NCBI GenBank assembly: GCA_946617655.1 | Contig: CAMOKL010000004.1 | Location: forward strand, 7,086-71,085 | Reading direction: 5' to 3' | Length of the DNA stretch: 64,000 nt | From: an uncultured Bacillales bacterium | GTDB lineage: Bacteria; Bacillota_I; Bacilli_A; Acholeplasmatales; Anaeroplasmataceae | Part shown: piece after piece, positions 1 to 64,000 of the stretch | How positions within the stretch are numbered: the stretch's first letter is position 1 | Layout: the number at the start of each line of letters is the position of its first letter | Translations under genes and position numbers: made by a program | The notes under the pieces: model-generated | What the model was told of the DNA's origin: nothing | What the model saw: the letters and a program-made list of their open reading frames with translations, nothing else | Databases searched by the model: none

Positions 1-309
1 TTATACTCCCCTATCAATAAATTGATAAATGGCCATTATTTCCTTCCATTCATTTTTAAATTCATTGATCCTCTCAATTCCTTTTTCTGTAATATGATAA
101 TACTTCCTTACTCGTCCTTCATATAAAGTACTTTTTACTAAAAGCATTTTTGCTTCCTCTAATCTTTTAAGAATAGTGTAAAGCGTCGATTCTGATAATT
201 TTAACACTGGACTTACGTCCTTTATTATCTTATACCCATAAGAATCTTCATTCCTTATAGCTGCAAGCACACATACATCAAGGACACCTCTTTTTAATTG
301 TGCATCCAT
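1..309 (-). CDS. PadR-family transcriptional regulator
   Basis: Contains LKRGVLDVCVLA...SYGYKI...ESTLYTILKRLE...RKYYHITEKG, a PadR wHTH pattern. ATG at 309 follows a GAGGT RBS; the ORF track starts at GTG 321. Confidence 0.88.
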   Translation of the reverse strand: MDAQLKRGVLDVCVLAAIRNEDSYGYKIIKDVSPVLKLSESTLYTILKRLEEAKMLLVKSTLYEGRVRKYYHITEKGIERINEFKNEWKEIMAIYQFIDRGV

Positions 310-43303: not shown

Positions 43304-44160
43304 GCTAATATCTCCTCTATGTACTTACCTTGATTTTTATATTTAATCATAGCAAGTTTTACTTTATTATCGCCATCATTAATATCTGACTGTTTTATAT
43401 TTTGGTAATATTCCCTTTCTGCATTAGAAAGATAGCACCTCTCAATTATTTCTAGATTTGATGTTGCTTTTTCAGTCAAAAAAACAAATTGTTTACCTAG
43501 ATTTGTAGCTGCTAAGCAATGTTTGCATTGCTCATCAGTTATTAATCCATCGATAAATTGCTCAATTATACGATACATTCTATTATCTGCTATTGGAGCA
43601 TAAATATAGTCAGCCTTTTTAACCTTATCAATTATTTTCTTTATAAGCGGATGCTCTTTATATGAATCAAGTGTTCCTCGATAATATGCTATAGCTAACA
43701 TCCATTCCTGATTCACATCAAAATTTACTTTTTTTAAATCTTTATCATTAAATTTAATCATATAAATACATGATGAAGGAAATCTTGAAACAAAGGAAGA
43801 TGCTTGTTCACTTGTCTCTCCACAATAGAATCCTCTACCAAAATCATTATTTTCTCTGCCACAAAATGGTGAAATAGTACCTTCTATTGTAGTTCTTGCA
43901 CCATGAAATATGATTTTTTCATTTGAAATTTCTTCCTTATACAACATTTCTTTTATGGTATTAAGTTTTATTCCTTTTTTATATGCTAAATCATATATTT
44001 TTTCTATTGTATTATCAGATGGATAGTTTTCACCATTTTCTATTCTAATTATTGTTCTTTTTTGAACACTGATACTGTTAGCAATGTCCTCTTGTGACAT
44101 ATCTAGCATCTCACGTATAAACTTTAAATCCTCGTTTATTCTATAATTCATACTATTCAT
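43300..44160 (-). CDS. XRE-HTH fused to a DUF3990 (ADP-ribosyltransferase-like) domain
   Basis: LKFIREMLDMSQEDIA...RIENGENYP (HTH); FHGA...DFGRGFYCG...QA and LGKQFVF (DUF3990). Confidence 0.78.
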   Translation of the reverse strand: MNSMNYRINEDLKFIREMLDMSQEDIANSISVQKRTIIRIENGENYPSDNTIEKIYDLAYKKGIKLNTIKEMLYKEEISNEKIIFHGARTTIEGTISPFCGRENNDFGRGFYCGETSEQASSFVSRFPSSCIYMIKFNDKDLKKVNFDVNQEWMLAIAYYRGTLDSYKEHPLIKKIIDKVKKADYIYAPIADNRMYRIIEQFIDGLITDEQCKHCLAATNLGKQFVFLTEKATSNLEIIERCYLSNAEREYYQNIKQSDINDGDNKVKLAMIKYKNQGKYIEEILA

Positions 44161-44497: not shown

Positions 44498-45499
44498 TTA
44501 TTTCAAATTATTAATTTCATTTTCTAATTTTTTTATATAAGTTAACAAATCATCAAAGCTATTAATTAAATCGTCATTAATCATTTCTTTCATATTAGAA
44601 AAATCAACTCTTAATTCTTTAATACGTTCTTCGCTTGGAACTAATATGAATGATCCTGGTAATGCTAGGTCATAATTAGCCCAACTTGATGGATAAAACT
44701 TCTTTTTGAATTCTCTTACTTCTGTTAATAGTTCAAGATTATTATATGCAATATTCTTATATTTAGTTAATGATAATCTATATACATCATAATAATGCCT
44801 TGAATATCTTGATGGCATTTTTCTATCTACTGGTCTATGTGCCTCTTGATTAAGTATCAAGATTTTCTCCCAAAATGTTCTTTCAGGAGATACTGTTTTA
44901 ATTATTGTTTCATTATTATCCATTATTTTTAAATTTAATTTAGAAATTAATGGTGATATTGTAACATCTTCTGTTGGAGTAAGTGCGGCAAGAGGTCCTA
45001 TTTCCAATCTAACATATTTCAAAATACCAGCATCATCATTATATAATCTTGGATAATTAAAATTTTAAACTTGTTGATCTTTTGCATCAATTTGAAAATC
45101 TGCTTTTTGGCCTAAAAAGCCATTAAAATCTTTTGTTATTTCAGGTAATAGTTTTTCTTTAATAAAATTTGCTGCTAATAGATTAATATTTTTATTATAA
45201 ATATCTTGTTGCCTCTTGCTCCTTTCTTTATTTGGATCATCATCAGTTAATAAATCCCATCTCAATATTAAGTCTATATCTTCAGAAAAACGTTCAATGA
45301 TATTAAAGCATTTAGATAGGCTTGTTCCACCTTTGAAAATAAAATAATCTTTATATTTACATCTATGAAATAAATAATCTAAGATTAATGTTACCCAAAA
45401 ATCTTTTTCTACAATAGCCTTACTAACACCATTTTCAAAAGCATATTTTGTGAAAACAATATCTCTATCATTATTACTTAACTTTGCAATATTATACAT
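44498..45499 (-). pseudogene. Second AbiEii nucleotidyltransferase toxin with an in-frame nonsense codon
   Basis: EKDFWVT, FKGGTSLSK and RFSEDIDL motifs. TAA at 45065-67 is followed in the same frame by NFNYPRLY...VRLEIG...ERTFWEK...SRHYYDV. Confidence 0.85.
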
Positions 45500-45509
45500 A
45501 TTTTTCTCC

Positions 45510-46100
45510 TTATACAGACTTTAAAATATCATGAATCCATGATGTAATCTTATAATTCTTTGTCTTTAGATTGTTTTTGTCAATATCATCTAAAAAACAA
45601 CTTATTTTTTTAATTACATTCTCATCAATATTATTTTTACCAATTGTTTTTAAAGCTTGAATACATATTAATATTTTATAAGATAAATCATTTATTTCTC
45701 TTGATGTTGAATGCTTAAAATATATTGTGTTATTACCAACTTCATATTCATTGTATGCACCATTTGTTATGTAAACATATTTTATTGGAACTTGGGTTGA
45801 TAATCCAATTAAATTTAATGCATAATTACCTGATGGAATAATAATTAAATTATATTGTCTTGCTATTGCCTTAGCTATTTCGTTAATACTTGGTGCTTCT
45901 TCGATGCCTAATAATTCATTATATTTAGGAATATAGTATATTCCTCTTCTAGCTCTTTTAATAATTCCCTTATCATCCAATGTTTCTAATGTTTTACTAA
46001 TCATTTTATAATTATCTATATCAGAAAAATCAGATGAAGTAAAAGCACCATACTTTTCACTATTTATTCGTTCTAAAATTCGTTCACTAGTATTGGACAT
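45510..46100 (-). CDS. AbiEi/DUF6088-type antitoxin
   Basis: RARRGIYYIP wHTH and PSGNYALNLIGLSTQVP motif. Probable start ATG at 46100 after AAAGGTG. Confidence 0.85.
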   Translation of the reverse strand: MSNTSERILERINSEKYGAFTSSDFSDIDNYKMISKTLETLDDKGIIKRARRGIYYIPKYNELLGIEEAPSINEIAKAIARQYNLIIIPSGNYALNLIGLSTQVPIKYVYITNGAYNEYEVGNNTIYFKHSTSREINDLSYKILICIQALKTIGKNNIDENVIKKISCFLDDIDKNNLKTKNYKITSWIHDILKSV

Positions 46101-46112
46101 TGTTACCATCAC

Positions 46113-46144
46113 CTTTCGCAAATATTATACAACTTTTGCGAAAG
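46113..46144. promoter_or_regulatory. Inverted repeat flanking the -10 box of the abiE promoter (candidate operator)
   Basis: CTTTCGCAAA-12nt-TTTGCGAAAG; the spacer contains a minus-strand TATAAT at 46124-29. Confidence 0.6.
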
Positions 46145-48381: not shown

Positions 48382-48981
48382 TTATTTATGAGATGCTTCC
48401 CATTCATCACATTTTTGTTGCAATAATAAATAATCTAACCAATATTTAGAATAATTAATTTCATTTTCAGTTAATCCTTTTATTTGATTAGATAATACTT
48501 TAATTTTTGTATCATATAAATATGAGCATCTATTCATTATAGATTGTGTATTTTTCAATTTGTTACACCAATTCATTAAATCTGTAAAGTCACGCTTAAC
48601 TTTTGGATTTGGTTCAGTATTAATATCATAGTTAATTATCGCACATGATGGAACTGGTATCATATAAGCAGCCTTTAAAATAGATGTTAATTTTTCATTA
48701 CCTGAAGAGTCAGTTTCAATAAATTCAACATCAAACTTAGAACGTTTTATCTTTTTAATGCCATTAGAATCAGAATATGATTTTCCTTTTTTTAGCATTT
48801 CTTTGCTTCCCTTATGGATAGGAACATAATAATTATAATTATTAACAGTGATACAAACGCCAATATATTTTCTACCACCATTTGTACTAAGAGCAATTTT
48901 GGAATCCATAACATTTTTTAATCTAGAATCTTGTTTTAAAAATTCAATATAATTTGGGTCAACATTAATTAAAGATAGCAT
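48382..48981 (-). CDS. toxN: Type III TA toxin, ToxN/AbiQ family
   Basis: RKYIGV...NYYVPI, YMIPVP and LDYLLLQQKCDEW patterns; lies downstream of a toxI-like array and terminator. Confidence 0.82.
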   Translation of the reverse strand: MLSLINVDPNYIEFLKQDSRLKNVMDSKIALSTNGGRKYIGVCITVNNYNYYVPIHKGSKEMLKKGKSYSDSNGIKKIKRSKFDVEFIETDSSGNEKLTSILKAAYMIPVPSCAIINYDINTEPNPKVKRDFTDLMNWCNKLKNTQSIMNRCSYLYDTKIKVLSNQIKGLTENEINYSKYWLDYLLLQQKCDEWEASHK

Positions 48982-49029: not shown

Positions 49030-49167
49030 CCTCACACTTATGGTAGTGAATCACCGTTTGTATGTAACCTCACACTTATGGTAGTGAATCACCGTTTGTA
49101 TGTAACCTCACACTTATGGTAGTGAATCACCGTTTGTATTACTTCTTACGAAGATACTTCTATCTTC
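49030..49167 (-). ncRNA. toxI: ToxI-like antitoxin RNA: 2.9 identical 38-nt repeats plus a 5' hairpin
   Basis: Unit AUACAAACGGUGAUUCACUACCAUAAGUGUGAGGUUAC has copies starting at 49030, 49068 and 49106 with no spacers. Its GGUGAUU..CUACC..AAGUG core resembles ToxI pseudoknots. Confidence 0.85.
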
Positions 49168-49783: not shown

Positions 49784-50830
49784 TTATTTTAATCTTGCGT
49801 ATTTATTATCTTTTCCATTACCTTCACGTTTTATTTCTCCAAGTTCTACTAATTTTCTTAATGAACCTTCTATAGAACTAATGCTAAGTGATGGACATAA
49901 TTCTCTTATATCTTGCTTTGTAAACCAACCAATTTTCTCGTTGATTGCTTTTCTTACCATATCGATAGCTGGTAATTTCTTTTCTACAATTTTAAATCTA
50001 TCTTCAAAATCTTTATAAGCTGCAAGTATTGTACTTAATAAATATTTAATAAATGGTACTGGATCATCATTACCTTCAATCCATCCATGTTGTGATGCTC
50101 CAAGTGCATCATAATATAAATCTTTATGTTTTGCTATCTTAGCTTCAAGTGATATATATTTACCAACATAAAAACCATTTCTATATAATAATAATGTTGT
50201 TAATAATCTAGACATTCTTCCATTTCCATCATTAAATGGATGAATGCATAAGAAATCATGAATAAATACAGGAATTGCTATCAATGGTTCTAATTCATTA
50301 TTACCTATTACTCTATTATATTCTTCACATATCCTATCTAATGCTTCTGGCGTATCAAATGGATCAAGAGGTGTAAATAATACTTCTACCTTACCATCGG
50401 GATATGTTGCTGATATATAATTTTGAACATTTTTTGTTCTTCCTGCCATAGGATTATTTAAATGATTATACATAATTTTATGAAGCTGTAATATAAAGTT
50501 TTGTGTTAATGGAATTGCATCAAAGCTTTCATGTATTATATTTAATACATCACGATATCCTGCTATTTCTTCTTCAGCTCTGTTTTTAGGTGTTGTTTTT
50601 TCTTCTACTAATTGCTTAATTCTTGAATTTGTTGTTACAATACCTTCAATAGCATTTGATGCTTCTGTACTTTGAATCTTAGCTATTTCAACTAGTTTTT
50701 CTAATTCTTCTGGTCTTTGCTTTAAATATAGTTCTTGTTTTCCTGCTTCTTTATATATAGCTGCTATATATCCTAAGATTTCAGAATCCCATGTTCTTTT
50801 ACTTATATCAGAATAATTGAATTTTCTCAT
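49784..50830 (-). CDS. Fic-family protein with a C-terminal wHTH
   Basis: Canonical HPFNDGNGRMSR motif; STEASNAIEG N-terminal motif. Confidence 0.92.
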   Translation of the reverse strand: MRKFNYSDISKRTWDSEILGYIAAIYKEAGKQELYLKQRPEELEKLVEIAKIQSTEASNAIEGIVTTNSRIKQLVEEKTTPKNRAEEEIAGYRDVLNIIHESFDAIPLTQNFILQLHKIMYNHLNNPMAGRTKNVQNYISATYPDGKVEVLFTPLDPFDTPEALDRICEEYNRVIGNNELEPLIAIPVFIHDFLCIHPFNDGNGRMSRLLTTLLLYRNGFYVGKYISLEAKIAKHKDLYYDALGASQHGWIEGNDDPVPFIKYLLSTILAAYKDFEDRFKIVEKKLPAIDMVRKAINEKIGWFTKQDIRELCPSLSISSIEGSLRKLVELGEIKREGNGKDNKYARLK

Positions 50831-51297: not shown

Positions 51298-51328
51298 AAA
51301 GCCGATTGCATATTTACAATCGGTTTTT
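51296..51328. terminator. Bidirectional terminator ending the sipW operon
   Basis: AAAAAGCCGATTG-8nt-CAATCGGTTTTT. Confidence 0.72.
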
Positions 51329-51332
51329 GTTA

Positions 51333-52181
51333 TTATTTCTTATCAATTTCATCAGTCGATATATGAACTTCAGGTTTTTGATTTGTCTCTACTTTTTCAA
51401 TAGTATCATTTAGATTTGGATTTTCTTTTCTTAATTCCTCAAGCATTTCTTTTCTCAAATCTTCACGCATCTTATTTAAGTCTTTTTCTTTTAATTCATT
51501 TTCTTTTTTCATCTTTTCAGTCTTTTGTTTTATGAATACATTCCATACTTGAAGACCAATCATTAAAACGAAAATAATTATTAAAATAAAGAATATAAGA
51601 TTTTTATTAATGCCACCTGATAAAAAGCTCATAATACCTACCACCATTATAAATTTACCATAAAACATATCACCTGTTATAGGTTCACTATCTAGTGATA
51701 TATTATTATCTCCTAATGTGATTAAATAATTTTGACATTCAGGAGTAGTTTTAACTGAATAATAATAATTTATTTCATCAATCATATCATCATAAGATAG
51801 ACCTGTAACTGATGGATCATAAGATATTTTATCTTTTAATTCACCATTAGATACCTTACCTACTACTCTATGAATAATAAATTTTTCATTAGATTCTGAA
51901 TAATATATTATTATATCTCCTACTTTAGCATCATCATATTTAGCACCATGATATAGTACATAATCACCTGGGTCTATAGTAGGTTTCATAGATTCAGTTG
52001 GTACATATGATATAGATAGATTAAATATGCTTGGTGGTTGATTATTTACATTACCAATTATTACTTTAATGGTAATGTAAATACAAAGGACTAACATTAA
52101 TATACCAAGAATTGTACCTATAATCATAGATTTAGAATTCTTTTTTCCTTTAACTTTGTTGTCCTTAATTTCATTGTTCAT
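51333..52181 (-). CDS. sipW: Signal peptidase I, SipW/ER-type (S26B)
   Basis: N-terminal TM, VPTESMKPTI (catalytic Ser), IIHRV (His base), TLGDNN and a C-terminal TM. Confidence 0.8.
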   Translation of the reverse strand: MNNEIKDNKVKGKKNSKSMIIGTILGILMLVLCIYITIKVIIGNVNNQPPSIFNLSISYVPTESMKPTIDPGDYVLYHGAKYDDAKVGDIIIYYSESNEKFIIHRVVGKVSNGELKDKISYDPSVTGLSYDDMIDEINYYYSVKTTPECQNYLITLGDNNISLDSEPITGDMFYGKFIMVVGIMSFLSGGINKNLIFFILIIIFVLMIGLQVWNVFIKQKTEKMKKENELKEKDLNKMREDLRKEMLEELRKENPNLNDTIEKVETNQKPEVHISTDEIDKK

Positions 52182-52213: not shown

Positions 52214-54694
52214 TTATTGCTTCTTCTTAATAGAAATTGTAGGCTTCTTCTTTGGTTTATCAGAAATATCTTCAGCATTTGAAGATTCTTCTTCATCAAA
52301 TAATCCATTTTCAGCCATTAGCTTATCTAATTCGTCATCACTTAAATCATCGATATCTGTATCTGAGATATTATCATGCTTATTAGACATAGCATCATCT
52401 ATTGCTTTAGATTGTGCCTGTTGTTCTTCTTCAGGAGTCATTTCCTTTGGAGCCTCTTCTGATTTAGGTTCTTCTTTAGATTCTGGTGTAGGAGTATCTT
52501 CTACTTTCTTTTTACCGAAGTTAGGGTTACCCTTCTTCTTTTCAGGCTTCTTTAATACAACATTAGATTTCTTTGGCTTATCTTCAACTAGAGGTTCAGT
52601 ATTAACTTCTTCAGGCTGTGCATCTTCTATAGGAGCTTCTTTTGTATCATTTGTTGTACTTTCAACTACATCAGCTGATGCCATATCACCTTCGAAGTTT
52701 TGGTTCATTAATGCTTCAAGCTCTTCATCAGTCATTTCATCTAAATCCTTAGATGTATCTACTTTAGCCTTAGCTTTCTTCTTTGGCTGTGCTTTCTTTG
52801 GCTTTTCTTCTGACTTATCATCAGATGCCTTATCTTCTGCCTTCTTCTTAGCTACAACTTTCTTCTTTGGCTTTTCTTCTACTTCAGGTTCAGCTTGAGC
52901 TTGTACTTCAGGAGCCTGGTTTTCCATATCATTTTGTTTCATTAATGCTTCTAGTTCTTCATCAGATAAATCATCATATTCATCCTTACGTCTTACTGGA
53001 GCATTATCTTGGTTAGCAGCTTCAATTTGAGCTTGTTCAGCCTTTATAGCATCTTCACGTAATTTCTTTAAATATTCACGATTAGATTCCATTAATGGCT
53101 TCATAATATCAATTTCAGCCTGCTTTTCAGGTGAAATAGAAGTTCTAGCATATTCTTGTTCGATACGCTCGCGTTCTAATTCCTTCTGACGTGCTAACGC
53201 AGCCTCTTCTAGACGACGCTTACGAGCTTCTCTCTTACGTTCACGTTCAAGTTCTGCAAGTCTCTTAGCTTCCATTCTTTGACGCTCACGTTCAAGTCTT
53301 TCTTGATCCTTCTGTTCTTTAACCTTAATCTTTTCTTGTAATTTCTCGATAATTCTATCGATATTCTTTTCTTCCTTACCCATTCTGGCAATGTTCATTT
53401 GCTTTGCCTGACGGACAATCTTAAAAACCATTAGTCTACGACGTGCGTATTCTAACTGTTCATATAAATCTTTTGATTCTAATTCTTCATCTGTTACACC
53501 AAATGCCTTTGGATAGATTTGGTCTAACATATCAAGCATTTGACGATAAACAACACGTACAGATTCATTATACTTAGTACCAGTACGCTGAATTGCGTCT
53601 AGTGATTGTTCGAAATACTCACTTGTTTGAGAAAGTAGTAATTCGTTCATTGTATAATCTTCTAGTGTCTTATTATCTGCTTCTAAGTTCATTTCAAGCT
53701 CTAAATCTTGATTTTCTTCAGGCTTTGGAGCTTTTACCTGTGGTAACTTCTTAGTAGCATAAATACCATCAATATTTCTATTTTTGATGAATGCAGTTAA
53801 GGCTAAAGCCATAACCTCATTAACATCCTTATTGAAAATCTGAGTGAATTTGTAATTCTTTTCTTTTACATCAACGTTAGTTGCAATACCATCAACACGG
53901 TCAAGATATAACCATAGACCATAACAAAGCTTGAAATCTGGGTTATGGATAATGATATTAGTCTTCATAATTGGAGGTAATACATCCTTAGCCTTAGCAA
54001 GAGCTCTCATGAATTCAGAATTCTTTAAGCCTTGGATATTTTGTCTTACCTGTAATAATCTTTGGTATTGTTCTTTTGTTGTCTCAACATCAGCAGTTAA
54101 GTCATTCTTAATTGCAACACCTAAATCAATAGTAACTTCTTGTCCTGATAACATGAATACGTTAGTTACTTGCATCTTTTCTGTTTCAAAAGATTCAAGT
54201 GAAACCTTCATTACTTCATATCTTCTTTCCAAGAATAATTCAATTCTTTTAACTAATGATTTAATGAATCTGTTTTCATAAATTGCTAATTCTTCTTCAG
54301 CGAATGTAGTTAATACCTTAGATGGAATAACATCACCATTCTTAGCAATTTCTTTTATTAATTCAGTATGTGAAGCTAAATGTCTTACAGTATCAGAATT
54401 AACTTTACGAGCTTTTTCTACCGCAACTACATCATTTTCATATCTAATTGACTTCTTAGGATCACGCATGATTTTAAGAAGAGCTGGATATACTGATTCA
54501 ATAGTATCAAGGAAGCTCATGTCAAAGTTTCTTATTTCTGATTGTGACTTATTAAATATTGTTTTTTGGCCTGCCTTAACTCTTTGGTAAATATAGTTAC
54601 CATAAGGGTCTGCTGTAGTTTCGTTTTCGATTTCAGCATATATTTTGGCATAATAATTTGTTAAATCGTCATTAGTATAATTAGATTTTGCCAT
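52214..54694 (-). CDS. DUF2357 (McrC-like N-terminal) protein with a coiled coil and acidic tail; no visible nuclease domain
   Basis: YENRFIKSL and NPDFKLCYGLW DUF2357-type motifs; long R/E/K coiled coil; acidic disordered C-terminus. Confidence 0.7.
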   Translation of the reverse strand: MAKSNYTNDDLTNYYAKIYAEIENETTADPYGNYIYQRVKAGQKTIFNKSQSEIRNFDMSFLDTIESVYPALLKIMRDPKKSIRYENDVVAVEKARKVNSDTVRHLASHTELIKEIAKNGDVIPSKVLTTFAEEELAIYENRFIKSLVKRIELFLERRYEVMKVSLESFETEKMQVTNVFMLSGQEVTIDLGVAIKNDLTADVETTKEQYQRLLQVRQNIQGLKNSEFMRALAKAKDVLPPIMKTNIIIHNPDFKLCYGLWLYLDRVDGIATNVDVKEKNYKFTQIFNKDVNEVMALALTAFIKNRNIDGIYATKKLPQVKAPKPEENQDLELEMNLEADNKTLEDYTMNELLLSQTSEYFEQSLDAIQRTGTKYNESVRVVYRQMLDMLDQIYPKAFGVTDEELESKDLYEQLEYARRRLMVFKIVRQAKQMNIARMGKEEKNIDRIIEKLQEKIKVKEQKDQERLERERQRMEAKRLAELERERKREARKRRLEEAALARQKELERERIEQEYARTSISPEKQAEIDIMKPLMESNREYLKKLREDAIKAEQAQIEAANQDNAPVRRKDEYDDLSDEELEALMKQNDMENQAPEVQAQAEPEVEEKPKKKVVAKKKAEDKASDDKSEEKPKKAQPKKKAKAKVDTSKDLDEMTDEELEALMNQNFEGDMASADVVESTTNDTKEAPIEDAQPEEVNTEPLVEDKPKKSNVVLKKPEKKKGNPNFGKKKVEDTPTPESKEEPKSEEAPKEMTPEEEQQAQSKAIDDAMSNKHDNISDTDIDDLSDDELDKLMAENGLFDEEESSNAEDISDKPKKKPTISIKKKQ

Positions 54695-54743
54695 GAAACC
54701 ACCCCAATTAGTAATGATTTTATAGTATTAAAGGCTACTATAA

Positions 54744-56288
54744 TTACTGCATCTTCTTTAAATCTTGAATGAAATCTTTAGATACCTTAAATTCTTCCTT
54801 ACCGAATAAACGGTCAAGTAATAATGTTAATTCATCTAATTCTGTCTTTAAGAAAGTTAAGTTTAACATTTCAAACTTTCTTAAAATCTTTGTTGTTAAC
54901 ATATAGTCAAGGGCTTCAAATTCACTGAATCCACATGCCATATAAACTGGTACGAATAATCTGATCTGCTTCATAATACGGTTACCGAATGCGATCTTGA
55001 ACTTATCTTGAATGAAGTTATCAAGTTCTTGGAATGCATTTGATGCGATTTCAGATAAATTGTATCCTGATTGAGTTCTCTTAAATAAATCATCTAAGTA
55101 TTCGAATGTCATTGAAATAGGCTCTGTATATGGAGCATCAATGAATTCTGCTTTTTTGTTAATTTGAATTGCAACAGCACGGTCGTAAACCTTATCTGTA
55201 ATAGTGAATGTAGAGTCATCCTTGTTGGCTGTACCAACGAACCAAATGTTTTGTGGTATTAATAATTTACCATTAATTAAGTTCTTAGGGTCAGTAGGTT
55301 CAGATACTGGAACTAAGTCAATCTTCCATTCATTAGCATCTGGCATTTCCATTACTGATAAGAATTCTGCGAAATAATACTCGATACGTGCTAGGTTCAT
55401 TTCATCTAGTACTGTGATATTAATTGTGTCTGAATAAGAAGCTTCATAAACACTTCTTAAGAAGTCTGTTTCATTGAATCTCTTTGTGAATTCGTTTAAG
55501 TAACCTAATAATTCAGCACGGTCACGCCATGAAGGCTGTACAGAAATAATCTTTGTATCATTTTGGAAGAACTTACCCATTGCATAAGGAAGGGAAGTCT
55601 TACCTGTACCTGAGATACCTTCTAGGATAGCTACTTTAGAAGTTGCCATACCAGCGATAAATCTAGCGATAATATCTCTTGAATAATACAAATGTAATTG
55701 TGATGCTGCGAAGTTAATGAATCTATCAACTAATTCTGATAATCCAATCATATCAGATTGATTCATAACTGTAATCTTTGGATTTTCTTCAGCTAATTGG
55801 TCAACTTGAATAAGCTTAGAGAATCTAGAGTTAACATCTACACCCTTCTTCTTAGCACCAGAACCATCATAATCTGCAGCACCTTGAGTACCAGCACCGA
55901 TTTGTGAAACTCTCATTGCTAAGATCTTATTCTTTTCATCGATTAGTTCAACAACCTTTTGGTTTAATAATGATACTTCTTCAACTAAAGCATCCTTATC
56001 AACTTCACGCTTTACGAACTTAACATATCTTCTTACTAACTGATATAATAATACAATTAATAATCCAATAAAACCGATATTAATAATTAATACTAGTATG
56101 AATGCAATATAGTCTAATGCATTCCAAGATCCAATGGCATCTCCAATTGCTGGAAAATAACCGTCTGCATTCCACCAGTCACCATAAAATACCTTTACGA
56201 TGATGGAAATGTGAGCAATGAACCACTCACAAATGTTATTCCATAGATCTCCTAAAAATTGTACATAATATTGTGCAAATCCGCTCAT
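54744..56288 (-). CDS. Membrane-anchored McrB-like AAA+ GTPase
   Basis: Walker A GISGTGKT, SVQPSW, Walker B LDEMNLAR and McrB-type GTANKDD signature; N-terminal hydrophobic helix plus a coiled coil. Confidence 0.82.
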   Translation of the reverse strand: MSGFAQYYVQFLGDLWNNICEWFIAHISIIVKVFYGDWWNADGYFPAIGDAIGSWNALDYIAFILVLIINIGFIGLLIVLLYQLVRRYVKFVKREVDKDALVEEVSLLNQKVVELIDEKNKILAMRVSQIGAGTQGAADYDGSGAKKKGVDVNSRFSKLIQVDQLAEENPKITVMNQSDMIGLSELVDRFINFAASQLHLYYSRDIIARFIAGMATSKVAILEGISGTGKTSLPYAMGKFFQNDTKIISVQPSWRDRAELLGYLNEFTKRFNETDFLRSVYEASYSDTINITVLDEMNLARIEYYFAEFLSVMEMPDANEWKIDLVPVSEPTDPKNLINGKLLIPQNIWFVGTANKDDSTFTITDKVYDRAVAIQINKKAEFIDAPYTEPISMTFEYLDDLFKRTQSGYNLSEIASNAFQELDNFIQDKFKIAFGNRIMKQIRLFVPVYMACGFSEFEALDYMLTTKILRKFEMLNLTFLKTELDELTLLLDRLFGKEEFKVSKDFIQDLKKMQ

Positions 56289-56356: not shown

Positions 56357-57829
56357 TTATTCACTCTTTTTTGTAGTCTTTTTAGCTGTGCTCTTTTTAG
56401 CACCAGTCTTTGTAGAAGTTGTTTTCTTTTCAGTAGTTGACTTCTTTGTAGTACTTCTAGTCTTCTTAGGCTTTTCTTCTACAGGAGCCTCATCTTCTTC
56501 TAATGCAGGATGACTTGCATCATCTTCTTGCTTAGTTTCTTCTACTTCACTTTCTACTGGAGTTTCTTCAACTGAAGTCTCTTCAGTTTGAGTTTCTTCA
56601 TGTGTTTCTACTTCATCTTCTTGAGGTTTTGTAACATCTTCTACCTCATTAACATTATTATCTTCTTCTACTTCAGGTAAAACTTCTTCTTCAACAACTG
56701 TTTCTTCTTGATTATTTTCAGTTTCAACTGGAGCATCAAGAGTTTCGTTATTATCTTCTACAGGAGTATCTTCTTCTACTGTAGGAACAGTTTCTTCTTG
56801 AGTGTTTTCTTCTACTACTTCTTCATTTGCTAAAGAATTATTATCTTCTTTTATTTCTTCCTTAACATCATTTTCTACTTCTTTAATATCATCATTTGCA
56901 ACATCATTTGCAACAATTACTGGTGCAGTATCAACATTTGCTCTTGCAATTGATTCATCCTTAATTTGTTGAGCTCTTAATTCAGCAAGTAATTCTTGCT
57001 TCATTCTTTCACGCTCTGCTTCCATATCAATAGGTTGATTAGAAACTACCTTACCATCCTTTGTAATTCCTCTCTTTTCATTTCTATAATCCATGAAATT
57101 CTTAATTACAAAGAAAATTTCAATTATTAACAATACTGCTACTGGGAATACAAAATATAATAACCAGTTGTTACGGATATTATCAGCAACTTTACCGCCA
57201 CCATACCAAACATCATTAACTTTTCCATATATCGTATTTAAATTTGATTCACCAAACACCTGAATATCATCAGAAGCTTCTAAATCATATATCTGATCCT
57301 TAGTGTGGCTAGAAACCCATGCATCATCAAATACACCCTTATTTACAGCTATCATATCACCTTCAGTATATAATTTAACTATTTTATTATCAGCATTTTT
57401 TAAAATATATACTATTCTGTGGGTATTATAAATTTTTTGTCCATCTTTTTCATCTTGGAATGTAACAACATCACCAACTTGTAATTCTTGTCTTTTAGAA
57501 TCGTTTAAGATGTTTACAATTACTAAATCACCAATACTAAATTGTTTAATTTTATAATCATTATAATCAGATTTAACCGAAATAATAGCCGATGATGAAG
57601 CTTCCATTGAGTTAGATTGTACAGATAAGAATCCTGTACCAAATATATTTGGAATACCATTCTTACCAGCACCTGCATTTATATTCGCAATAGAAAGTAA
57701 GAATAAAAATACTAGTACTGAATAAAATACTATATTACCAGCTATCTTTAAACCCAAGAACACTTTTTGCTTAGGTGTCTTCTTAGGCTTTTCTTTTTTA
57801 ATATCATTTTGAATATTAGTTTCTTGCAT
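56357..57829 (-). CDS. sipW: Second SipW-type signal peptidase with a long acidic cytoplasmic tail
   Basis: TM, SVQSNSME, NTHRIV, TEGD, second TM, then an E/T/V-rich tail ending in a K/T-rich segment. Confidence 0.72.
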   Translation of the reverse strand: MQETNIQNDIKKEKPKKTPKQKVFLGLKIAGNIVFYSVLVFLFLLSIANINAGAGKNGIPNIFGTGFLSVQSNSMEASSSAIISVKSDYNDYKIKQFSIGDLVIVNILNDSKRQELQVGDVVTFQDEKDGQKIYNTHRIVYILKNADNKIVKLYTEGDMIAVNKGVFDDAWVSSHTKDQIYDLEASDDIQVFGESNLNTIYGKVNDVWYGGGKVADNIRNNWLLYFVFPVAVLLIIEIFFVIKNFMDYRNEKRGITKDGKVVSNQPIDMEAERERMKQELLAELRAQQIKDESIARANVDTAPVIVANDVANDDIKEVENDVKEEIKEDNNSLANEEVVEENTQEETVPTVEEDTPVEDNNETLDAPVETENNQEETVVEEEVLPEVEEDNNVNEVEDVTKPQEDEVETHEETQTEETSVEETPVESEVEETKQEDDASHPALEEDEAPVEEKPKKTRSTTKKSTTEKKTTSTKTGAKKSTAKKTTKKSE

Positions 57830-57982
57830 AAAATCACTAATCCTTTCCCAAACGACAAACCATAGTATATTAATATTTTACCATAATCCCAATTAAAATA
57901 ACAAATTTTTTTTATAGTATAACCATATTGTTATTTTATTTAATAAAGCGAACTAATAGTTTTTCGTTTTATTAAATAAAAT

Positions 57983-58012
57983 AAAAGCCATAAAGTCTCC
58001 CTTATGGCTTTT
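57983..58012 (-). terminator. Terminator after the secreted-protein cluster
   Basis: AAAAGCCATAA-8nt-TTATGGCTTTT. Confidence 0.72.
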
Positions 58013-58029
58013 AAGTCATAATTTATGAG

Positions 58030-59190
58030 TTAAATATCTTCATCAGCGGTAAATGTCAAGTTAAGTGTTGTTGGTTTTTGATCAATACCAAATAAACAAT
58101 CAGAATCCCAACCCTCAGCCCAAAAGTAAACTGTTACTTTAACTTTAGTTTGTACTCCTGAATGAACACCTAAGAAATTACCTGATTCTAACTCTGAATT
58201 ACTAGCTTTCGCTCTAATTTCTCGGTTTTCGTTTGTAATTTCTAAATCATTTACGCCTCTGTTGACTGCGTTTGAAAGACATTCTTCAAAATATTCTTTT
58301 TTTCCTGTGTAAATACTATTTTTTAAATATGGACGAATAACTAGAAGTTCTTTTAAAGCTGTATTTCTTTCTTCTTCTAATATGCCACCTAAACTATATG
58401 AACCGTCTTCACTTAATGCTGGTTCTTGTGTACCACCTTGATAGATTTTCAAATCATTAGGTTCAGCATTATCGTTGTATTCAGCATTTATGTCAAGTGG
58501 ACTAAAAATTTCAAAAGCAAACCTCATTGCATTAGCTGAATTTACAGTATAAACATTAGGTAAACTCTTTAATATAGTATTTTTAGGGTTGTCTTCTAAC
58601 CCTATAAATGGATTACCATTAGAAAAGTTGAAATCAGCTAAAGTACCAACTAAAGTATTCTCCAATTCTGTCATTAAAATTGGTGCATTAATCTCAGTTG
58701 TTTCAAGATTAATACCTTCTTTAGTATCTACAGAAAAATATAAATCAAATTTATAGTAACCAATAGTATCAATCATACTAAGATAATCTCTTTGTTTGTA
58801 ATCAATAGCCTGGAAAGATGTAAGCTTATTATCGCTTACTGTAGTAGTTAAAGGTGTTAAAGTTAGTTTAGAGAATATCGTCTCTATTGAATTATCATCC
58901 TGGCCATCAATATATGAAGAATATTCACTAGAGTTTTTTCTATTCTTAAGAATTTGTCTTTCTATTTCAATTGTATCAACAGCTTCACCAAATGTGCCAT
59001 TTTTGCCACTGCCTGAAATTGTTAAATAATAATTAGCTTTAGTTTCTTGTATTTTAAGATTCATCTCAAAATTAGAAACACTAGCATAAGTGAAGATACC
59101 AACCCATGCGAAAGTAGTGGCAATCATAGTAATCAAAACTACTACGCTAGTTAGTAAGCTAATTATTATTTTTTTGCTTAAACCTCGCAC
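58030..59190 (-). CDS. Secreted paralog 5 with a SipW-type signal peptide (TasA/CalY-like export)
   Basis: Signal ends ATTFAW; YYKFDLYF, NAMRF and C-terminal FWAEGWDSDC...LNLTF motifs. Confidence 0.7.
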   Translation of the reverse strand: MRGLSKKIIISLLTSVVVLITMIATTFAWVGIFTYASVSNFEMNLKIQETKANYYLTISGSGKNGTFGEAVDTIEIERQILKNRKNSSEYSSYIDGQDDNSIETIFSKLTLTPLTTTVSDNKLTSFQAIDYKQRDYLSMIDTIGYYKFDLYFSVDTKEGINLETTEINAPILMTELENTLVGTLADFNFSNGNPFIGLEDNPKNTILKSLPNVYTVNSANAMRFAFEIFSPLDINAEYNDNAEPNDLKIYQGGTQEPALSEDGSYSLGGILEEERNTALKELLVIRPYLKNSIYTGKKEYFEECLSNAVNRGVNDLEITNENREIRAKASNSELESGNFLGVHSGVQTKVKVTVYFWAEGWDSDCLFGIDQKPTTLNLTFTADEDI

Positions 59191-59236: not shown

Positions 59237-60244
59237 TTAGCCGTTATTATTAGCCTTCTTTTCGATACCTTGGAATTCCATATCTAATGCAAATGTTTGT
59301 TGACGACATGCATCGAAACACATCTTATCCCAACCATCAAGATAAATATCGAATCTTACCATTAAGATACTATCTAATCCGCCAGCGTTAGCACCAGCTC
59401 CTGTAGAAAGACTAAATACATAATCACCCTTTGCGAATGTAGCAATATCAGTTACAGAATCTTCTGAAGATAAAAGTGTTTCACTAATTTTTGTATTTTT
59501 AACATTATTATAATATGTATGTGCATTAGCATCAGCACCTGTATTTGTACCCTTACCTGGAGCATTTTGACCATCTGTCTTTGCAGCAATTGAATCACAA
59601 GAATAAGCTGTTCTAGTTGCTTCATCATCAGTTGCTAATAATGGTGATGCTGTAGCACTTGCAGCAACTTCTGTGCCATTACCAATTGTTACAACAACAT
59701 TTGTTGCGTATAACATATCTACATAGTAAGTGTTACCACCAGCTCCTGTACCTTCAGCTAAAACTGACTTAGTAGGTAAAGATGCGCCAGTAGTTGTATT
59801 TCTTAAATCAAACTTCTTTACTTGAACATTTAAATCTGCTGAAGAACCTGACTTGAAATATACATAGAATGAAATATATCCATCAGAAGCTGTAGTACCA
59901 CCAGTAACTGCACCACCTTCCTTATTTTCATTTGGACTCCAAGTATAATACTTACCAGCCTCTAAAGCTGAGTTATTAGTCTTAACTTTTGTACCAGCAT
60001 ATGCAACTGGATCTAAAGTTACTGCTGATGTATCTACATCAATTTGAGCACCCCAATGACCAACCTTTGCAGAATCAGAGATTAGTAATAATGTTGCATC
60101 TTTTTCATTTGTCTTACCTGTAATACCTTCAGCCTTAACTGTATCGTTTGAAGTATACCAAGCGAATGTTGTTGAAACTAATGTTGTTGCACAAGCTGCT
60201 AAAGCTGCGCATGATAAACCTAATTTTAAACCTAATTTTCTCAT
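59237..60244 (-). CDS. Secreted paralog 4, small-residue-rich (possible major subunit)
   Basis: Signal ends STTFAW; YISFYVYF, HTYYNN and YLDGWDKMC motifs; A/T/G-rich composition. Confidence 0.7.
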   Translation of the reverse strand: MRKLGLKLGLSCAALAACATTLVSTTFAWYTSNDTVKAEGITGKTNEKDATLLLISDSAKVGHWGAQIDVDTSAVTLDPVAYAGTKVKTNNSALEAGKYYTWSPNENKEGGAVTGGTTASDGYISFYVYFKSGSSADLNVQVKKFDLRNTTTGASLPTKSVLAEGTGAGGNTYYVDMLYATNVVVTIGNGTEVAASATASPLLATDDEATRTAYSCDSIAAKTDGQNAPGKGTNTGADANAHTYYNNVKNTKISETLLSSEDSVTDIATFAKGDYVFSLSTGAGANAGGLDSILMVRFDIYLDGWDKMCFDACRQQTFALDMEFQGIEKKANNNG

Positions 60245-60298
60245 AATTTTTTCTCCTTTTATTTTTTTTATTTTTTTAGATTTTTTTGACTAATTTTT

Positions 60299-61624
60299 TT
60301 ATTCTCCACTATAAACCTTAGTCGAGTTAAATAGTAGATGTACATTAATAGAACTTGACAGACCATCGAAGCAGTCGGCATCCCAACCCTCCAGCCAAAA
60401 TCTACATGTTACCTGTTTTACTGCACCGCCTGACTCAACTGTAGTAATTACATGTTTGTTTCCATTACCATTTGTTATGTCAGCGTACTTTAATGTATTA
60501 AGACGAACGTCATCTTCATTGTAATCAATTAATTTCTCTGTTAATTTTGCGTTCTTCTTAATGTTGTTATAGTAAGTGTACATTGCATTGATGTTAGCAC
60601 AATATGCTTTTTCAAGCTCAGTTACTTCATCTCCGTCTGCAAACACTTTACTATTTTCATAAGTTGTAGCAAAGCTACCTAAGTTAGTGACTTCAACATC
60701 TTCACCAGCGATATTTTCTGTACCTTCTTGATTTAACTCATATATTAGAGTTTTTTCAATTTCAGTAACTACTTCTTCATTTTCTGGTTCAGTTACAACT
60801 GGTTCTGTAACTATAGGTCCTACTGGATCAGTTACATCAGTTTGTGCTGTAGATGTTGTTAATGGTTCATCTTCATCTACTGATGTTTCTTGTACATATG
60901 TACTTGAAGTCATACTAAATCTCATCGCATTTGAGGAATAAACATTTACATAGTCAAAATTATCTTGTGATAATGATTTAACTACATTATCCTTTGTTAC
61001 AAGTCTCATATCATCTAATAATTCGACATGATCTACTTCATTAGATTTGATATAAGTACCAGCTACTGTTTTATCAGTAGTGTTATCTTCACTTGCAATT
61101 TGTCCTTCGTTCATACCAGAACTTATTACTTTATCTCCAGTTAAATATATTGCATATTTTTGATTTTCAGTATCTTTATCAGAAACTGCTTTAAAATATA
61201 AATTTAACTGAACATATCTTCCATCTTTTGGACTTACTGTTGAACCAGATAGATTCTTTAAGACTCTACCATCTTCACTTGTTACTGGATATAACAATAT
61301 ATCATTTGCGATAATCTTATTGATTGTTGCATCAGTAACTTGTTGTCCTGCATATTCTAATGAATTGCCATCCTTAGAGAACTTATAGTTCTTGTTATAA
61401 CCATGAACCATAGCCATTCTCATTTGAGATGATGATAAGTTATGATAATAATGAGTACCATCTACAGAAACCTGAAATCCAAGTCCACCTGTTACATCGA
61501 AATCAAATCCACTTACAACTGCTGTAGAGTTGATTTGGAACCATGCATAAGTAGTTGAAAATAAGCTTAAACCAGTTAATGCCACTGTTGAAATGCCTAC
61601 TATCAGTTTTCTTAAGTGTTTCAT
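60299..61624 (-). CDS. Secreted paralog 3 with a SipW-type signal peptide
   Basis: STTYAWF; YVQLNLYF, NAMRF, MYTYYNN and FWLEGWDADC motifs. Confidence 0.7.
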   Translation of the reverse strand: MKHLRKLIVGISTVALTGLSLFSTTYAWFQINSTAVVSGFDFDVTGGLGFQVSVDGTHYYHNLSSSQMRMAMVHGYNKNYKFSKDGNSLEYAGQQVTDATINKIIANDILLYPVTSEDGRVLKNLSGSTVSPKDGRYVQLNLYFKAVSDKDTENQKYAIYLTGDKVISSGMNEGQIASEDNTTDKTVAGTYIKSNEVDHVELLDDMRLVTKDNVVKSLSQDNFDYVNVYSSNAMRFSMTSSTYVQETSVDEDEPLTTSTAQTDVTDPVGPIVTEPVVTEPENEEVVTEIEKTLIYELNQEGTENIAGEDVEVTNLGSFATTYENSKVFADGDEVTELEKAYCANINAMYTYYNNIKKNAKLTEKLIDYNEDDVRLNTLKYADITNGNGNKHVITTVESGGAVKQVTCRFWLEGWDADCFDGLSSSINVHLLFNSTKVYSGE

Positions 61625-61696: not shown

Positions 61697-62770
61697 CTAA
61701 TCCCCGTTATCTTCGTTAGGATTATTTACGGTAAATGCTAGATTTACCTTGAAGCTTGAAGCTTCATTAGGTGTTCCAATAATATAGTCAGCATCCCAGC
61801 CTTCCATAAATACAGTTATTACTAAATGTATATCTCTGAAATTTAATTTTGATACTGGATTTTCATATTCACTATCATATTTAAATGTAGAGATTGGATT
61901 TTTCTGGAATGATTCTTCTGTATTTAGATATGCGTTACCATCATGTGCAGCGCGAGTGAATTTTGAATCACCATGGATGCTATTCCAATAAGTATACATT
62001 GCATTCTTATCCTTATTATGGATATCATCTGTTGCGCCTTCAACTGCTGCAGAGCCTAAACCTAGGCTAGGTTCATATAAAACTACATTAGAATTATCTA
62101 CATTAGTAACTAACACTCTCATAGCATCAGCTGGATCATACGATACTGTATCACCTGAATCAAGCTCTGTGCCATCAACTAGTGTTAACTTATTGTCTAA
62201 CGCTTTAATATATTTTTCTTCTTTATTAGTATAAGCACTAGAAATTGTTGTATCAATATCGAAATATAGATCACAATCTTCTAAAGCCTTAGCTGTATTT
62301 TCGTATCTTAACCATAAATCGAATGATAAATAATCAGTATGCGAAGCATCAGCCATTACCATTTCATAAACGTTATCATAATCGTAATTGTCTTTTTCAT
62401 CTTCTGGAATCTCAATTTCAGAAGGTGTTACAGTATACATCTTAGGATAACCATTTTCATCAATAGTAATATCTCCACTTTCGTATGTACCAAGTGTTGA
62501 TTGACCATATTTTAATTCACTATAATTTGCATCTTCTCCAGCCCATGCTTCAATTACCTTTTTTATTTCAGATTTAGAAACATTTTGAGTAAAATGTGTT
62601 CCATCTGTTGAAATTAAAACTCCCGCTGAAGATTTTACATTATAATCATATTCATCAATCCACGCTACATTGTTTCTTGCGAACCAAGCGTATGTTACAG
62701 TGACGGCACATGCAGCAGTTAATACTAATGCTCCGCCAGCTAAAATGATTTTTCTAGACATAGACTTCAT
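61697..62770 (-). CDS. Secreted paralog 2 with a SipW-type signal peptide
   Basis: Start ATG at 62770 after AAGGAG; VTYAWF, YLSFDLWL, DAMRV, MYTYWN and FMEGWDAD motifs. Confidence 0.7.
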   Translation of the reverse strand: MKSMSRKIILAGGALVLTAACAVTVTYAWFARNNVAWIDEYDYNVKSSAGVLISTDGTHFTQNVSKSEIKKVIEAWAGEDANYSELKYGQSTLGTYESGDITIDENGYPKMYTVTPSEIEIPEDEKDNYDYDNVYEMVMADASHTDYLSFDLWLRYENTAKALEDCDLYFDIDTTISSAYTNKEEKYIKALDNKLTLVDGTELDSGDTVSYDPADAMRVLVTNVDNSNVVLYEPSLGLGSAAVEGATDDIHNKDKNAMYTYWNSIHGDSKFTRAAHDGNAYLNTEESFQKNPISTFKYDSEYENPVSKLNFRDIHLVITVFMEGWDADYIIGTPNEASSFKVNLAFTVNNPNEDNGD

Positions 62771-62844
62771 GTGCTCATCTCCTTTTCTAGTAATCATTAT
62801 AATTTTATTTCGTAGACAAATGTAGGACAATTACTAATAAATAA

Positions 62845-63873
62845 TTATACTGTCATATCTACTGATAATGTTAAACCAAATTTAATTGTACCAGAATATA
62901 TATTATCACCGAAATATCCTTCATCAGGGTCTTCACCCTCAAGCCAGAATAGAACTGTGAACTTCATATATCCACCAGCTTCAATTCTATAAGGATCATC
63001 GTTAAATACTGTACCAGCTTGATTACCAACGCTTTGGAAGCTTGTTAATGGAGCTAAGTCATCATTATAACCATGGTTTAAATAATATTCTCTTGAATCT
63101 TCATAACTTCTAAAGTCTGTATCATTTTCATCATATTCTCTTGACATATCCTCAGGCTTATAATAAATTCTTGCTTTAGTAGAATTTTCTTCTGTACCTT
63201 GAGTGAATACCATGATTCTAGATATTTCATCACAGTAATGAGATACATTACTATATGTCATTGTTGCTTTAAACTGAACTGATGTATTATCTGTTGAAGT
63301 ATTTACAACATAGAATGAATATGCATAAAGTGATCTACCTGTTACACCTAAATCAAGTAATGTTGTATAGTATGTAATATTTGGATCATATTTTTCATCT
63401 TCTGAAACCTTAACGAAGATGTAATCTAATTCATTTCCAACTGAATCGTATGATACAACTTCTTTTCTATAAATTTTATCAATATGTTCATTAAAATCAG
63501 CTTCATCAGTAACTTGAGCATCTACATAATCTGCTGAGTCACCTAACCATCTACCCATATGAGATGAGATTGATGTTAAAGTTGAATATTTATTGTTATC
63601 TAAGAAATATTGAGGATTATAGTCAGACATGTTATTTGCGCCTTCTGCAGTAAGCTTAGACTGTAGACTTGGTGCAACGCCATTCGGATTGTCTAATGTT
63701 ATTGATATTGACTTATCTAGGTTACCATCTTGAACCTGGATAACGAATGTTCCTGCTTCTTGACCTAATAACATAGCAATAATGATTATTGCAGATGCTA
63801 AGAATAATAAGAAGCATAAAGCTATTTTAACCCATTTGTTTCTAAATAAAGATACGAACTTGTTAACTAGCAT
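62845..63873 (-). CDS. Paralog 1: N-terminally membrane-anchored member of the same family
   Basis: Start ATG at 63873 after GGAGGTG; TM helix without the T(F/Y)AW motif; YAYSFYVVN and FWLEGEDPD motifs. Confidence 0.65.
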   Translation of the reverse strand: MLVNKFVSLFRNKWVKIALCFLLFLASAIIIIAMLLGQEAGTFVIQVQDGNLDKSISITLDNPNGVAPSLQSKLTAEGANNMSDYNPQYFLDNNKYSTLTSISSHMGRWLGDSADYVDAQVTDEADFNEHIDKIYRKEVVSYDSVGNELDYIFVKVSEDEKYDPNITYYTTLLDLGVTGRSLYAYSFYVVNTSTDNTSVQFKATMTYSNVSHYCDEISRIMVFTQGTEENSTKARIYYKPEDMSREYDENDTDFRSYEDSREYYLNHGYNDDLAPLTSFQSVGNQAGTVFNDDPYRIEAGGYMKFTVLFWLEGEDPDEGYFGDNIYSGTIKFGLTLSVDMTV

Positions 63874-63933
63874 CAAATCCACCTCCTGTCTATTATATTT
63901 CCCCCAAGGGTTAATTTGATTGTTATAGAAAAC

Positions 63934-64000
63934 AAAAAAGTTGCCCCTCTTTGTAGTAAAACACATTCCTACGAGTTGGCAACTGGCTGTCCGATTAGGG
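63934..64000 (-). promoter_or_regulatory. 3' part of a probable c-di-GMP-I (GEMM) riboswitch plus overlapping terminator (truncated by window edge)
   Basis: Minus strand CCUAA..GACAGCCAGUUGCC matches the GEMM 3' end. GUUGCC (63978-83) pairs with GGCAAC (63940-45), which is followed by a U6 tract. Confidence 0.5.

Follow-up and report, generated by a model that had tools for sequence, protein, structure and literature searches.

A CoCoPALM-type, McrBC-derived GTPase pair between two signal peptidases in a putative surface-fibre operon of Acholeplasmatales

McrBC is the textbook example of a GTP-driven restriction enzyme. The finger domain of McrC fills the McrB ring and, by inserting a Lys or Arg beside the signature loop, stimulates the GTPase; a stepwise movement of McrC around the ring in the course of GTP hydrolysis has been proposed (PMC7680126). 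Within the NxD McrB GTPases, Bell, Koonin and colleagues (eLife 2024, PMC11090510) named a large clade CoCoPALM, in a description of two sentences. There the GTPase is fused to an FtsB-like transmembrane (TM) helix and coiled coil, coiled coils are usual on both the McrB and the McrC homologues, and the systems are tied to signal-peptidase-family genes and pilus assembly, with a fuller analysis deferred to a forthcoming publication (PMC11090510). No later papers mentioning CoCoPALM were found in the literature searched, and the supplements of the CoCoNuT paper add no CoCoPALM details. Here we analyse a 64-kb window (the whole stretch of DNA under study, to which all positions refer) from an uncultured member of the Anaeroplasmataceae, in which a predicted McrB-family GTPase and a McrC-like DUF2357 protein lie between two signal peptidases, Sip1 and Sip2, next to genes for five fibre-family proteins, F1 to F5; all genes between 51.3 and 64.0 kb are on the minus strand. 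We consider it probable, though by no means assured, that this CoCoPALM-type, McrBC-derived GTPase module serves a surface-fibre operon, does not cut DNA, and couples signal-peptide cleavage to fibre assembly.

Membership of the predicted GTPase in the McrB family is established by sequence profiles. Taken singly, the protein matches E. coli McrB weakly (phmmer E 0.018), and Pfam AAA_5 likewise (0.043). A profile built from 61 diverse relatives finds McrB as its best match among PDB sequences (E 1.7e-4) and as the sole AAA+ protein among the matches with E <= 0.01, and alignment of the family profile with residues 175-348 of E. coli McrB by hhalign gives a probability of 97.4% (E 1.3e-11). The original prediction, made from the letters of the window, had read two open reading frames (ORFs) of 514 and 826 amino acids (aa) as a McrB/McrC-like pair; both frames are as it gave them, and the pairing holds, the partner being recognized through its Pfam DUF2357 domain. 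In an alignment of 81 orthologues, the Walker A box (GISGTGKT, aa 224-231), the Walker B box (VLDEMNLA, D295/E296) and the sensor loop (GTANKDDSTF, with N355, D357 and D358) are invariant or nearly so. None of the 61 relatives departs from N355 or D357, and position 358 is occupied by D or E, so that the signature is the NxD(D/E) variant of the McrB motif, not the classic NxxD that had been proposed together with the intact Walker boxes, which are indeed present. This variant has been described before (PMC11090510). GTP hydrolysis by the pair is putative; the catalytic core of McrB is complete. PADLOC model PDC-M26A matches this core only (1.4e-39; profile positions 304-435 of 724).

The GTPase lacks a DNA-binding reader domain and carries a TM helix and a stalk in its place. 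A single strong TM helix stands out (aa 63-81, with a Kyte-Doolittle mean of 3.13 over 19 residues), followed by the segment RRYVKFVKRE and then by an invariant heptad-like stretch at aa ~98-130; helix and stalk are kept even in orthologues at 66% identity. From the positive-inside rule, the predicted topology is N-out/C-in. Pfam finds no domain in aa 1-197 (aromatic segment, TM helix, stalk and linker) at E <= 10, and even at that threshold there is no DivIC/FtsB match to the GTPase. The hydropathy maximum and the conserved heptad stretch thus agree with the earlier claim that a TM anchor and a candidate coiled-coil stalk have replaced the DNA reader.

The partner carries DUF2357 (PF09823; 1.1e-9, 38.3 bits against a cut-off of 23.3, aa 12-165), and so do 25 of 28 partner orthologues surveyed with Pfam, none of which matches a nuclease family. 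The AlphaFold2 (AF2) model of its aa 1-470 (pLDDT 71.6, pTM 0.41) consists of helices and long beta-hairpins, a disordered linker at aa 307-343 and long helices at aa 344-469. With this model Foldseek retrieves nothing from PDB at E <= 1e-3, neither McrC nor a nuclease, its top matches being TolC and topoisomerase noise. A profile of partner orthologues retrieves only low-complexity coiled-coil matches from PDB sequences, and hhalign gives the partner profile a probability of 0.3% against E. coli McrC. That protein is too distant for a direct match, and the DUF2357 assignment is therefore owed to Pfam alone.

A cryptic nuclease domain was sought in the Pfam survey, in motif conservation and in the fold search, and none was found, in keeping with the earlier claim that the pair has no nuclease. 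One string in the window partner, 'PD...DVK' (P252-D253 ... D275-V-K277), was considered as a cryptic nuclease motif and rejected. N251-P-D253 and E278 are conserved among the partner orthologues, while D275 and K277 vary and there is no ExK; because D275 and K277 vary, an active PD-(D/E)xK site is unsupported. The region at aa ~232-306 may be a vestigial, inactive nuclease remnant.

Beyond this region the partner had been predicted to continue as a coiled coil with an acidic tail. The modelled helices at aa 344-469 and the tail that follows them together form a candidate coiled-coil/helical extension, and E, K and D make up 17%, 15% and 10% of the tail (aa 471-826), whose net charge is -24. 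The conserved core ends near aa 480 and tail length varies, orthologues ranging from 478 to >900 aa. Three short acidic motifs stand in the disordered tail of the window partner, DDLSDEELEALM, DEMTDEELEALM and DDLSDDELDKLM. The motif occurs in one to four copies, only in the closest long-tailed relatives, and the DDLSDEELEALM repeat was for that reason rejected as a general docking motif; it may be a lineage-specific one.

The pair is bracketed by two signal peptidases, as had been noticed at the outset. Sip2 matches TIGR02228 (5e-19, 68.7 bits against a cut-off of 51.85), has SEC11 as its best PDB match, and shows the motifs TESMKP, IIHRV and GDNN, two TM helices and a charged cytoplasmic tail that carries LRKEMLEELRKE. 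Sip1 is more weakly matched (SipW, 2.9e-5) and has a Ser box (SNSMEA) and a His box (NTHRIV). Its cytoplasmic tail, behind the second of two TM helices, carries a conserved motif, EAERERMKQELLAELR, and is acidic beyond it. In orthologues of either peptidase the Ser (xSMx) and His (xHR[IV]) boxes are retained, and both enzymes are apparently active as signal peptidases. The tail motif of Sip1, EAEKEKMRQELLAELR, is shared by 57 of 68 orthologues, which range from Anaeroplasma to Peloplasma. Moreover, a cytoplasmic helix motif behind the TM helices is common to Sip1 (aa ~265-290) and Sip2 (aa ~234-253), as ERERMKQELLAELR and REDLRKEMLEELR, and is the best local match when the two are compared by BLASTP.

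The signal peptides of F2 to F5 end in (T/S)T(F/Y)AW(F/Y/V), and these four proteins have in common a C-terminal (W/Y)xEGWDxDC. F1 keeps that C-terminal motif, as FWLEGEDPDE, and has an uncleaved-looking TM helix (Kyte-Doolittle 3.05, aa 48-66) without TFAWF. Its orthologue comes first in the cluster at every locus whose flank reaches that far, and F5 in close relatives is always the last F gene ahead of Sip1. TasA, a SipW-cognate protein, has Phe at P2' (PMC10269814). Judged by its residues, the F signal motif is similar to that of the SipW-cognate class to which TasA and CalY belong. The AF2 model of F4 is a beta-sandwich (pLDDT 84.7, pTM 0.84). Its top Foldseek match in PDB is the TasA fibre 8AUR, a weak one (E 0.02, prob 0.66, TM-score 0.24-0.33), followed by chaperone-usher pilins.

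GTPase homologues number in the thousands, and at least 281 loci of the GTPase were found in GTDB species genomes; synteny and identity figures are taken from the best 80. All of these are labelled Acholeplasmatales, Anaeroplasmataceae, Acholeplasmataceae or related names, and cultured species (Paracholeplasma vituli, Peloplasma aerotolerans) as well as one complete chromosome are among them. Counting loci with enough flank, the order F1-F(n)-Sip1-GTPase-DUF2357-Sip2 is found in nearly every one of these 80 Acholeplasmatales loci, the exception being one of two tandem Peloplasma copies, which is without DUF2357 and Sip2. GTPase identity across the 80 loci is 53-98%, partner identity falls to 37-43% where that of the GTPase is still 66%, and F4 orthologues are 27-92% identical. 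As far as sequence comparison goes, conserved machinery here stands alongside fast-evolving surface subunits. The genes flanking the module differ between genomes. Hence the module looks like vertically inherited surface-fibre machinery and not like a mobile restriction or defence island.

Transcription was followed in rumen metatranscriptome contigs from sheep gut, with a 90% likeness cut-off. Contigs cross the Sip1/GTPase, GTPase/DUF2357 and DUF2357/Sip2 junctions, consistent with Sip1-GTPase-DUF2357-Sip2 being a four-gene unit expressed in vivo. A terminator-like hairpin parts the subunit genes from this machinery unit, and another closes the unit (Table 1). Contig depth, a poor measure of expression to which DNA carry-over may contribute, is greatest at the junction of the F3 C-terminus and F4 N-terminus (~850-1290, at 60114-60547) and is 12-130 over the GTPase pair. 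This pattern fits very high subunit expression, the presence of several strains, and variable parts falling below the likeness cut-off.

Table 1. Features of the fibre-family genes and the four-gene machinery unit (nt, nucleotide positions in the window; aa, residues of the protein; HMM, hidden Markov model).
Feature	Position	Strand	Description	Basis
F1	62845..63966	-	membrane-anchored fibre-family member	
F2	61697..62830	-	secreted paralogue; VTYAWF signal-peptide end, C-terminal FMEGWDADY	
F3	60299..61624	-	secreted paralogue; TTYAWF, FWLEGWDADCFD	
F4	59237..60244	-	secreted paralogue; TTFAWY, YLDGWDKMCFD; A/G/T/S-rich	
F5	58030..59190	-	secreted paralogue; TTFAWV, FWAEGWDSDC	
Hairpin	57982..58013	-	terminator-like, 14-bp stem and T run, between F5 and Sip1	
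Sip1	56357..57829	-	divergent SipW-type signal peptidase	weak HMM, Ser/His boxes
GTPase	54744..56288	-	McrB-family, NxD(D/E) clade, 514 aa	ORF, profiles, motifs
GTPase N-terminal segment	aa 1-60	-	acidic, aromatic-rich	
GTPase TM helix	aa 61-85, nt 56034-56108	-		
GTPase heptad stalk	aa ~95-130, nt 55899-56006	-		
GTPase core	aa ~198-370, nt 55179-55697	-	followed by C-terminal helical domain	
DUF2357 partner	52214..54694	-	McrC-like, 826 aa	ORF, Pfam, AF2
Partner DUF2357 domain	aa 12-165, nt 54200-54661	-		Pfam
Partner PPIMKTNIILHNPDF block	aa ~240-254		conserved	
Partner helical region	aa 344-469, nt 53288-53665	-		AF2
Partner tail	aa 471-826, nt 52214-53284	-	variable, charged, with three DDLSDEELEALM-type motifs	
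Sip2	51333..52181	-	archaeal/ER (SipW/Sec11)-type signal peptidase I	TIGR02228
Hairpin	51302..51323	-	terminator-like, directly after Sip2, end of unit	

Outside the best 80 loci the module takes other forms. A reduced version (F1, one F protein, one or two peptidases, GTPase and DUF2357) is found in contigs L088, L089 and L091, with GC contents of 57%, 43% and 30% and F signals of the AAFAWF type; in L089 its neighbours are GGDEF/EAL genes. The system thus reaches beyond Acholeplasmatales. In Peloplasma aerotolerans (NZ_JASCXW010000005.1; L084, L075) the two tandem copies of the module lie ~15 kb apart, the first being the copy without DUF2357 and Sip2, and each is followed by small, weakly F-like ORFs and a giant ORF (2362 aa; >1695 aa). 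More distant GTPase relatives have two or four to six TM helices, or none and long N-termini as in CoCoNuT, and are without peptidases; the multi-TM and two-TM relatives (L086, L087) were considered as members of the same system and rejected for that lack. The metagenome contig L086 (26.6% GC) carries two tandem pairs of a two-TM McrB-like GTPase and a DUF2357 protein, adjoining FtsY/Ffh and then an ORF of >3176 aa, with no signal peptidase. It is a different membrane-McrBC context, possibly linked to giant surface proteins.

Directly downstream of Sip2 in the window is a small toxin-antitoxin (TA)/defence islet of ToxN, AbiE, Fic and DUF3990 genes, all on the minus strand. Ahead of a ToxN-family toxin gene (48382-48981; Pfam ToxN_toxin 1.1e-19) stands a 38-nt tandem repeat in 2.9 perfect copies (49030-49139), by sequence the layout of a type III (ToxIN-like) TA system with an RNA antitoxin. 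An AbiEii nucleotidyltransferase toxin is split into two ORFs, with the N-terminal part at 45065-45499 and the C-terminal part at 44498-45022, which makes a frameshift or a pseudogene probable; upstream of it is a DUF6088 (AbiEi-like) gene (45510-46121). Genes for a helix-turn-helix protein with DUF3990 and for a Fic-domain protein are found at 43300-44160 and 49784-50830. At the same position in other genomes the islet is absent: L001 has rplM/rpsI there, and L002 has AAA_14/DUF4143.

If the module does couple signal-peptide cleavage to assembly, the following sequence of events can be envisaged. The F proteins would build a fibre of the donor-strand type, with F1 as its root in the membrane, a root that would matter because these organisms are Mollicutes, which have no cell wall to hold a fibre. 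Six TM helices would fix a GTPase hexamer to the membrane, and the DUF2357 protein would occupy the pore of the ring; its invariant K145 and R158 (helix 133-163), or K49, are candidates for the activating residues. GTP turnover would then move the TM helices and extracellular segments, and with them the cytoplasmic tails of the peptidases, and this movement could couple or gate two events, signal-peptide cleavage at TFA|WF and the passing of the new N-terminal strand to the growing fibre. FtsEX/MacB-like mechanotransmission follows a similar logic. A bolder version, possible but doubtful, makes the McrB hexamer a membrane stator in whose pore the DUF2357 protein steps or rotates, so that the energy of GTP reaches the two signal peptidases through the membrane and couples cleavage at TFA|WF to donor-strand insertion at the foot of a membrane-rooted, TasA-like fibre; a restriction motor would thereby have become a new fibre-biogenesis engine of wall-less bacteria, possibly a retractable one. 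A rotation model has been proposed for McrBC itself (PMC7680126).

Several observations weigh against a fibre-serving GTPase module. None of F1 to F5 has a Pfam or NCBIfam match, a profile of the F4 family run against PDB sequences does not retrieve TasA, and the TasA-like fold, a lead from a predicted model, is weakly assigned. The partner model is mediocre, and McrC was retrieved with it neither by Foldseek nor by hhalign. The CoCoPALM class is itself known from sequences alone, and it is pure conjecture that the peptidase tails touch the GTPase pair. TasA fibres assemble without any NTPase, so that the need for a motor is unexplained. Furthermore, CoCoNuT and PADLOC PDC-M26, to which the GTPase is closely related, count as defence candidates.

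The last point bears on an envelope-linked defence or abortive-infection module, in which the membrane pair would sense phage attack on the fibre or the membrane and trigger a non-nuclease response. The original prediction had offered, side by side, a non-restriction membrane GTPase motor and a membrane-sensing defence variant guarding the fibre. The motor is supported by McrB membership, the conserved TM helix, the lack of a nuclease and the fixed order with the peptidases; the defence variant found no support in a syntenic module with such GTPase identity and with differing flanks. Defence does have arguments, in that the nearest relatives (McrBC, CoCoNuT and PDC-M26A) are all defence-associated, a TA/defence islet lies just downstream in the window, and fast-evolving fibres are plausible phage receptors. 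However, a fixed order, apparently vertical inheritance across an order and a GTPase 53-98% identical are the opposite of defence-island behaviour, the flanks vary between genomes so that the islet is not conserved, Pfam and NCBIfam reveal no effector (nuclease, HEPN, pore-former or NADase) in the unit, and the partner matches no PADLOC model; we regard this explanation as rather improbable. Still less is to be said for a pair that remains a restriction enzyme by means of a cryptic or trans-acting nuclease, which is scarcely credible. Its case is the 'PD...DVK' string with conserved N251-P-D253 and E278, against which stand the varying D275 and K277, the missing ExK, the empty nuclease searches by Pfam (28 orthologues) and by fold, and a membrane-tethered GTPase without a DNA-binding domain in a unit where Pfam and NCBIfam detect no other nuclease gene.

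Two further explanations keep the module at the membrane and give it another task. An AAA+ ring tethered to the membrane and flanked by two signal peptidases, next to highly expressed F proteins that each free a hydrophobic signal peptide, could be a quality-control or extraction engine, pulling signal peptides, precursors or mis-assembled anchors from the membrane as FtsH or Cdc48 do. In McrBC, however, the pore is occupied by the McrC finger and not by substrate (PMC7680126), DUF2357 is retained here, and no protease domain is attached. On this balance extraction seems an unlikely role. Alternatively, an FtsB-like TM helix and coiled coil might recruit the GTPase to the division site of wall-less cells as a division or morphogenesis factor, with the fibre linkage incidental, and Mollicutes have reduced divisomes, which counts in favour of this. 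So does the description of the N-terminal domain as FtsB-homologous by Bell et al. (PMC11090510). We nevertheless think a division factor very unlikely, given that Pfam returns no DivIC/FtsB match at E <= 10, that linkage to peptidases and F genes is present in nearly every locus examined, distant ones included, and that no division genes adjoin.

Fibre service by the GTPase module, the reading we prefer, would have consequences beyond this locus. Here the motor and activator of a restriction enzyme are under strong purifying selection without reader or nuclease. If the motor truly acts on signal peptidases or fibre subunits, surface fibres would be made by a route of a new kind, a defence motor would clearly have been recruited to the cell envelope, and there would be a way to study how bacteria without a wall anchor and build their surface filaments. 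The host order, Acholeplasmatales, comprises abundant rumen and gut bacteria. The system is present in cultured Paracholeplasma vituli and Peloplasma aerotolerans and is therefore testable.

Compared with the McrBC of E. coli and Thermococcus, the window pair has the McrB-type AAA+ GTPase core and, in the partner, the N-terminal domain of McrC (DUF2357). It differs in lacking the N-terminal DNA-binding domain and any detected PD-(D/E)xK nuclease, in a signature shortened to NxD(D/E), in a partner without detectable similarity to E. coli McrC, and in being chromosomally fixed in a secretion/fibre operon. CoCoNuT (CnuB/CnuC) belongs to the same NxD GTPase clade, and its McrC homologues are often without an active nuclease; many top matches in a search of representatives are TM-less proteins of ~700-870 aa with the same motifs, as in CoCoNuT. 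Those systems have long cytoplasmic coiled coils, no TM helix, and neighbouring HEPN or other nucleases, whereas the window unit has a TM anchor, peptidases and secreted subunits, with no nuclease gene detected by Pfam or NCBIfam. In PADLOC PDC-M26 terms, only the GTPase core has a counterpart (PDC-M26A), the partner having none among PADLOC models. TapA-SipW-TasA of B. subtilis and CalY/SipW of B. cereus likewise place a dedicated SipW/Sec11-type peptidase beside secreted beta-sandwich subunits, with signal peptides ending T-(F/W/Y)-A-x-F, and F1 is comparable to TapA as an accessory anchor protein, although its anchor is in the membrane and not in the wall. In contrast to those systems, the F proteins have no sequence homology to TasA/Peptidase_M73, and the window has two peptidases, both with long cytoplasmic tails, plus an NTPase pair.

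The closest likeness is to CoCoPALM. The window pair has an NxD-clade GTPase with a TM helix and candidate coiled coil at its N-terminus, helical extensions on both the GTPase (aa ~95-130) and the partner (aa 344-469 and tail), and flanking peptidases, in the window as in nearly every locus whose flank is long enough. The FtsB-like feature is present in architecture only, FtsB homology not being detectable with Pfam, and no feature of the window contradicts membership. Hence the system is CoCoPALM-type, and its arrangement is one already named, not new. What the present analysis adds to CoCoPALM is the TasA-type signal motif, the F1 membrane anchor, the two-peptidase bracket and the cytoplasmic tail motif shared by the peptidases, together with operon boundaries, contigs consistent with transcription in vivo, and synteny across Acholeplasmatales with occurrence beyond that order.

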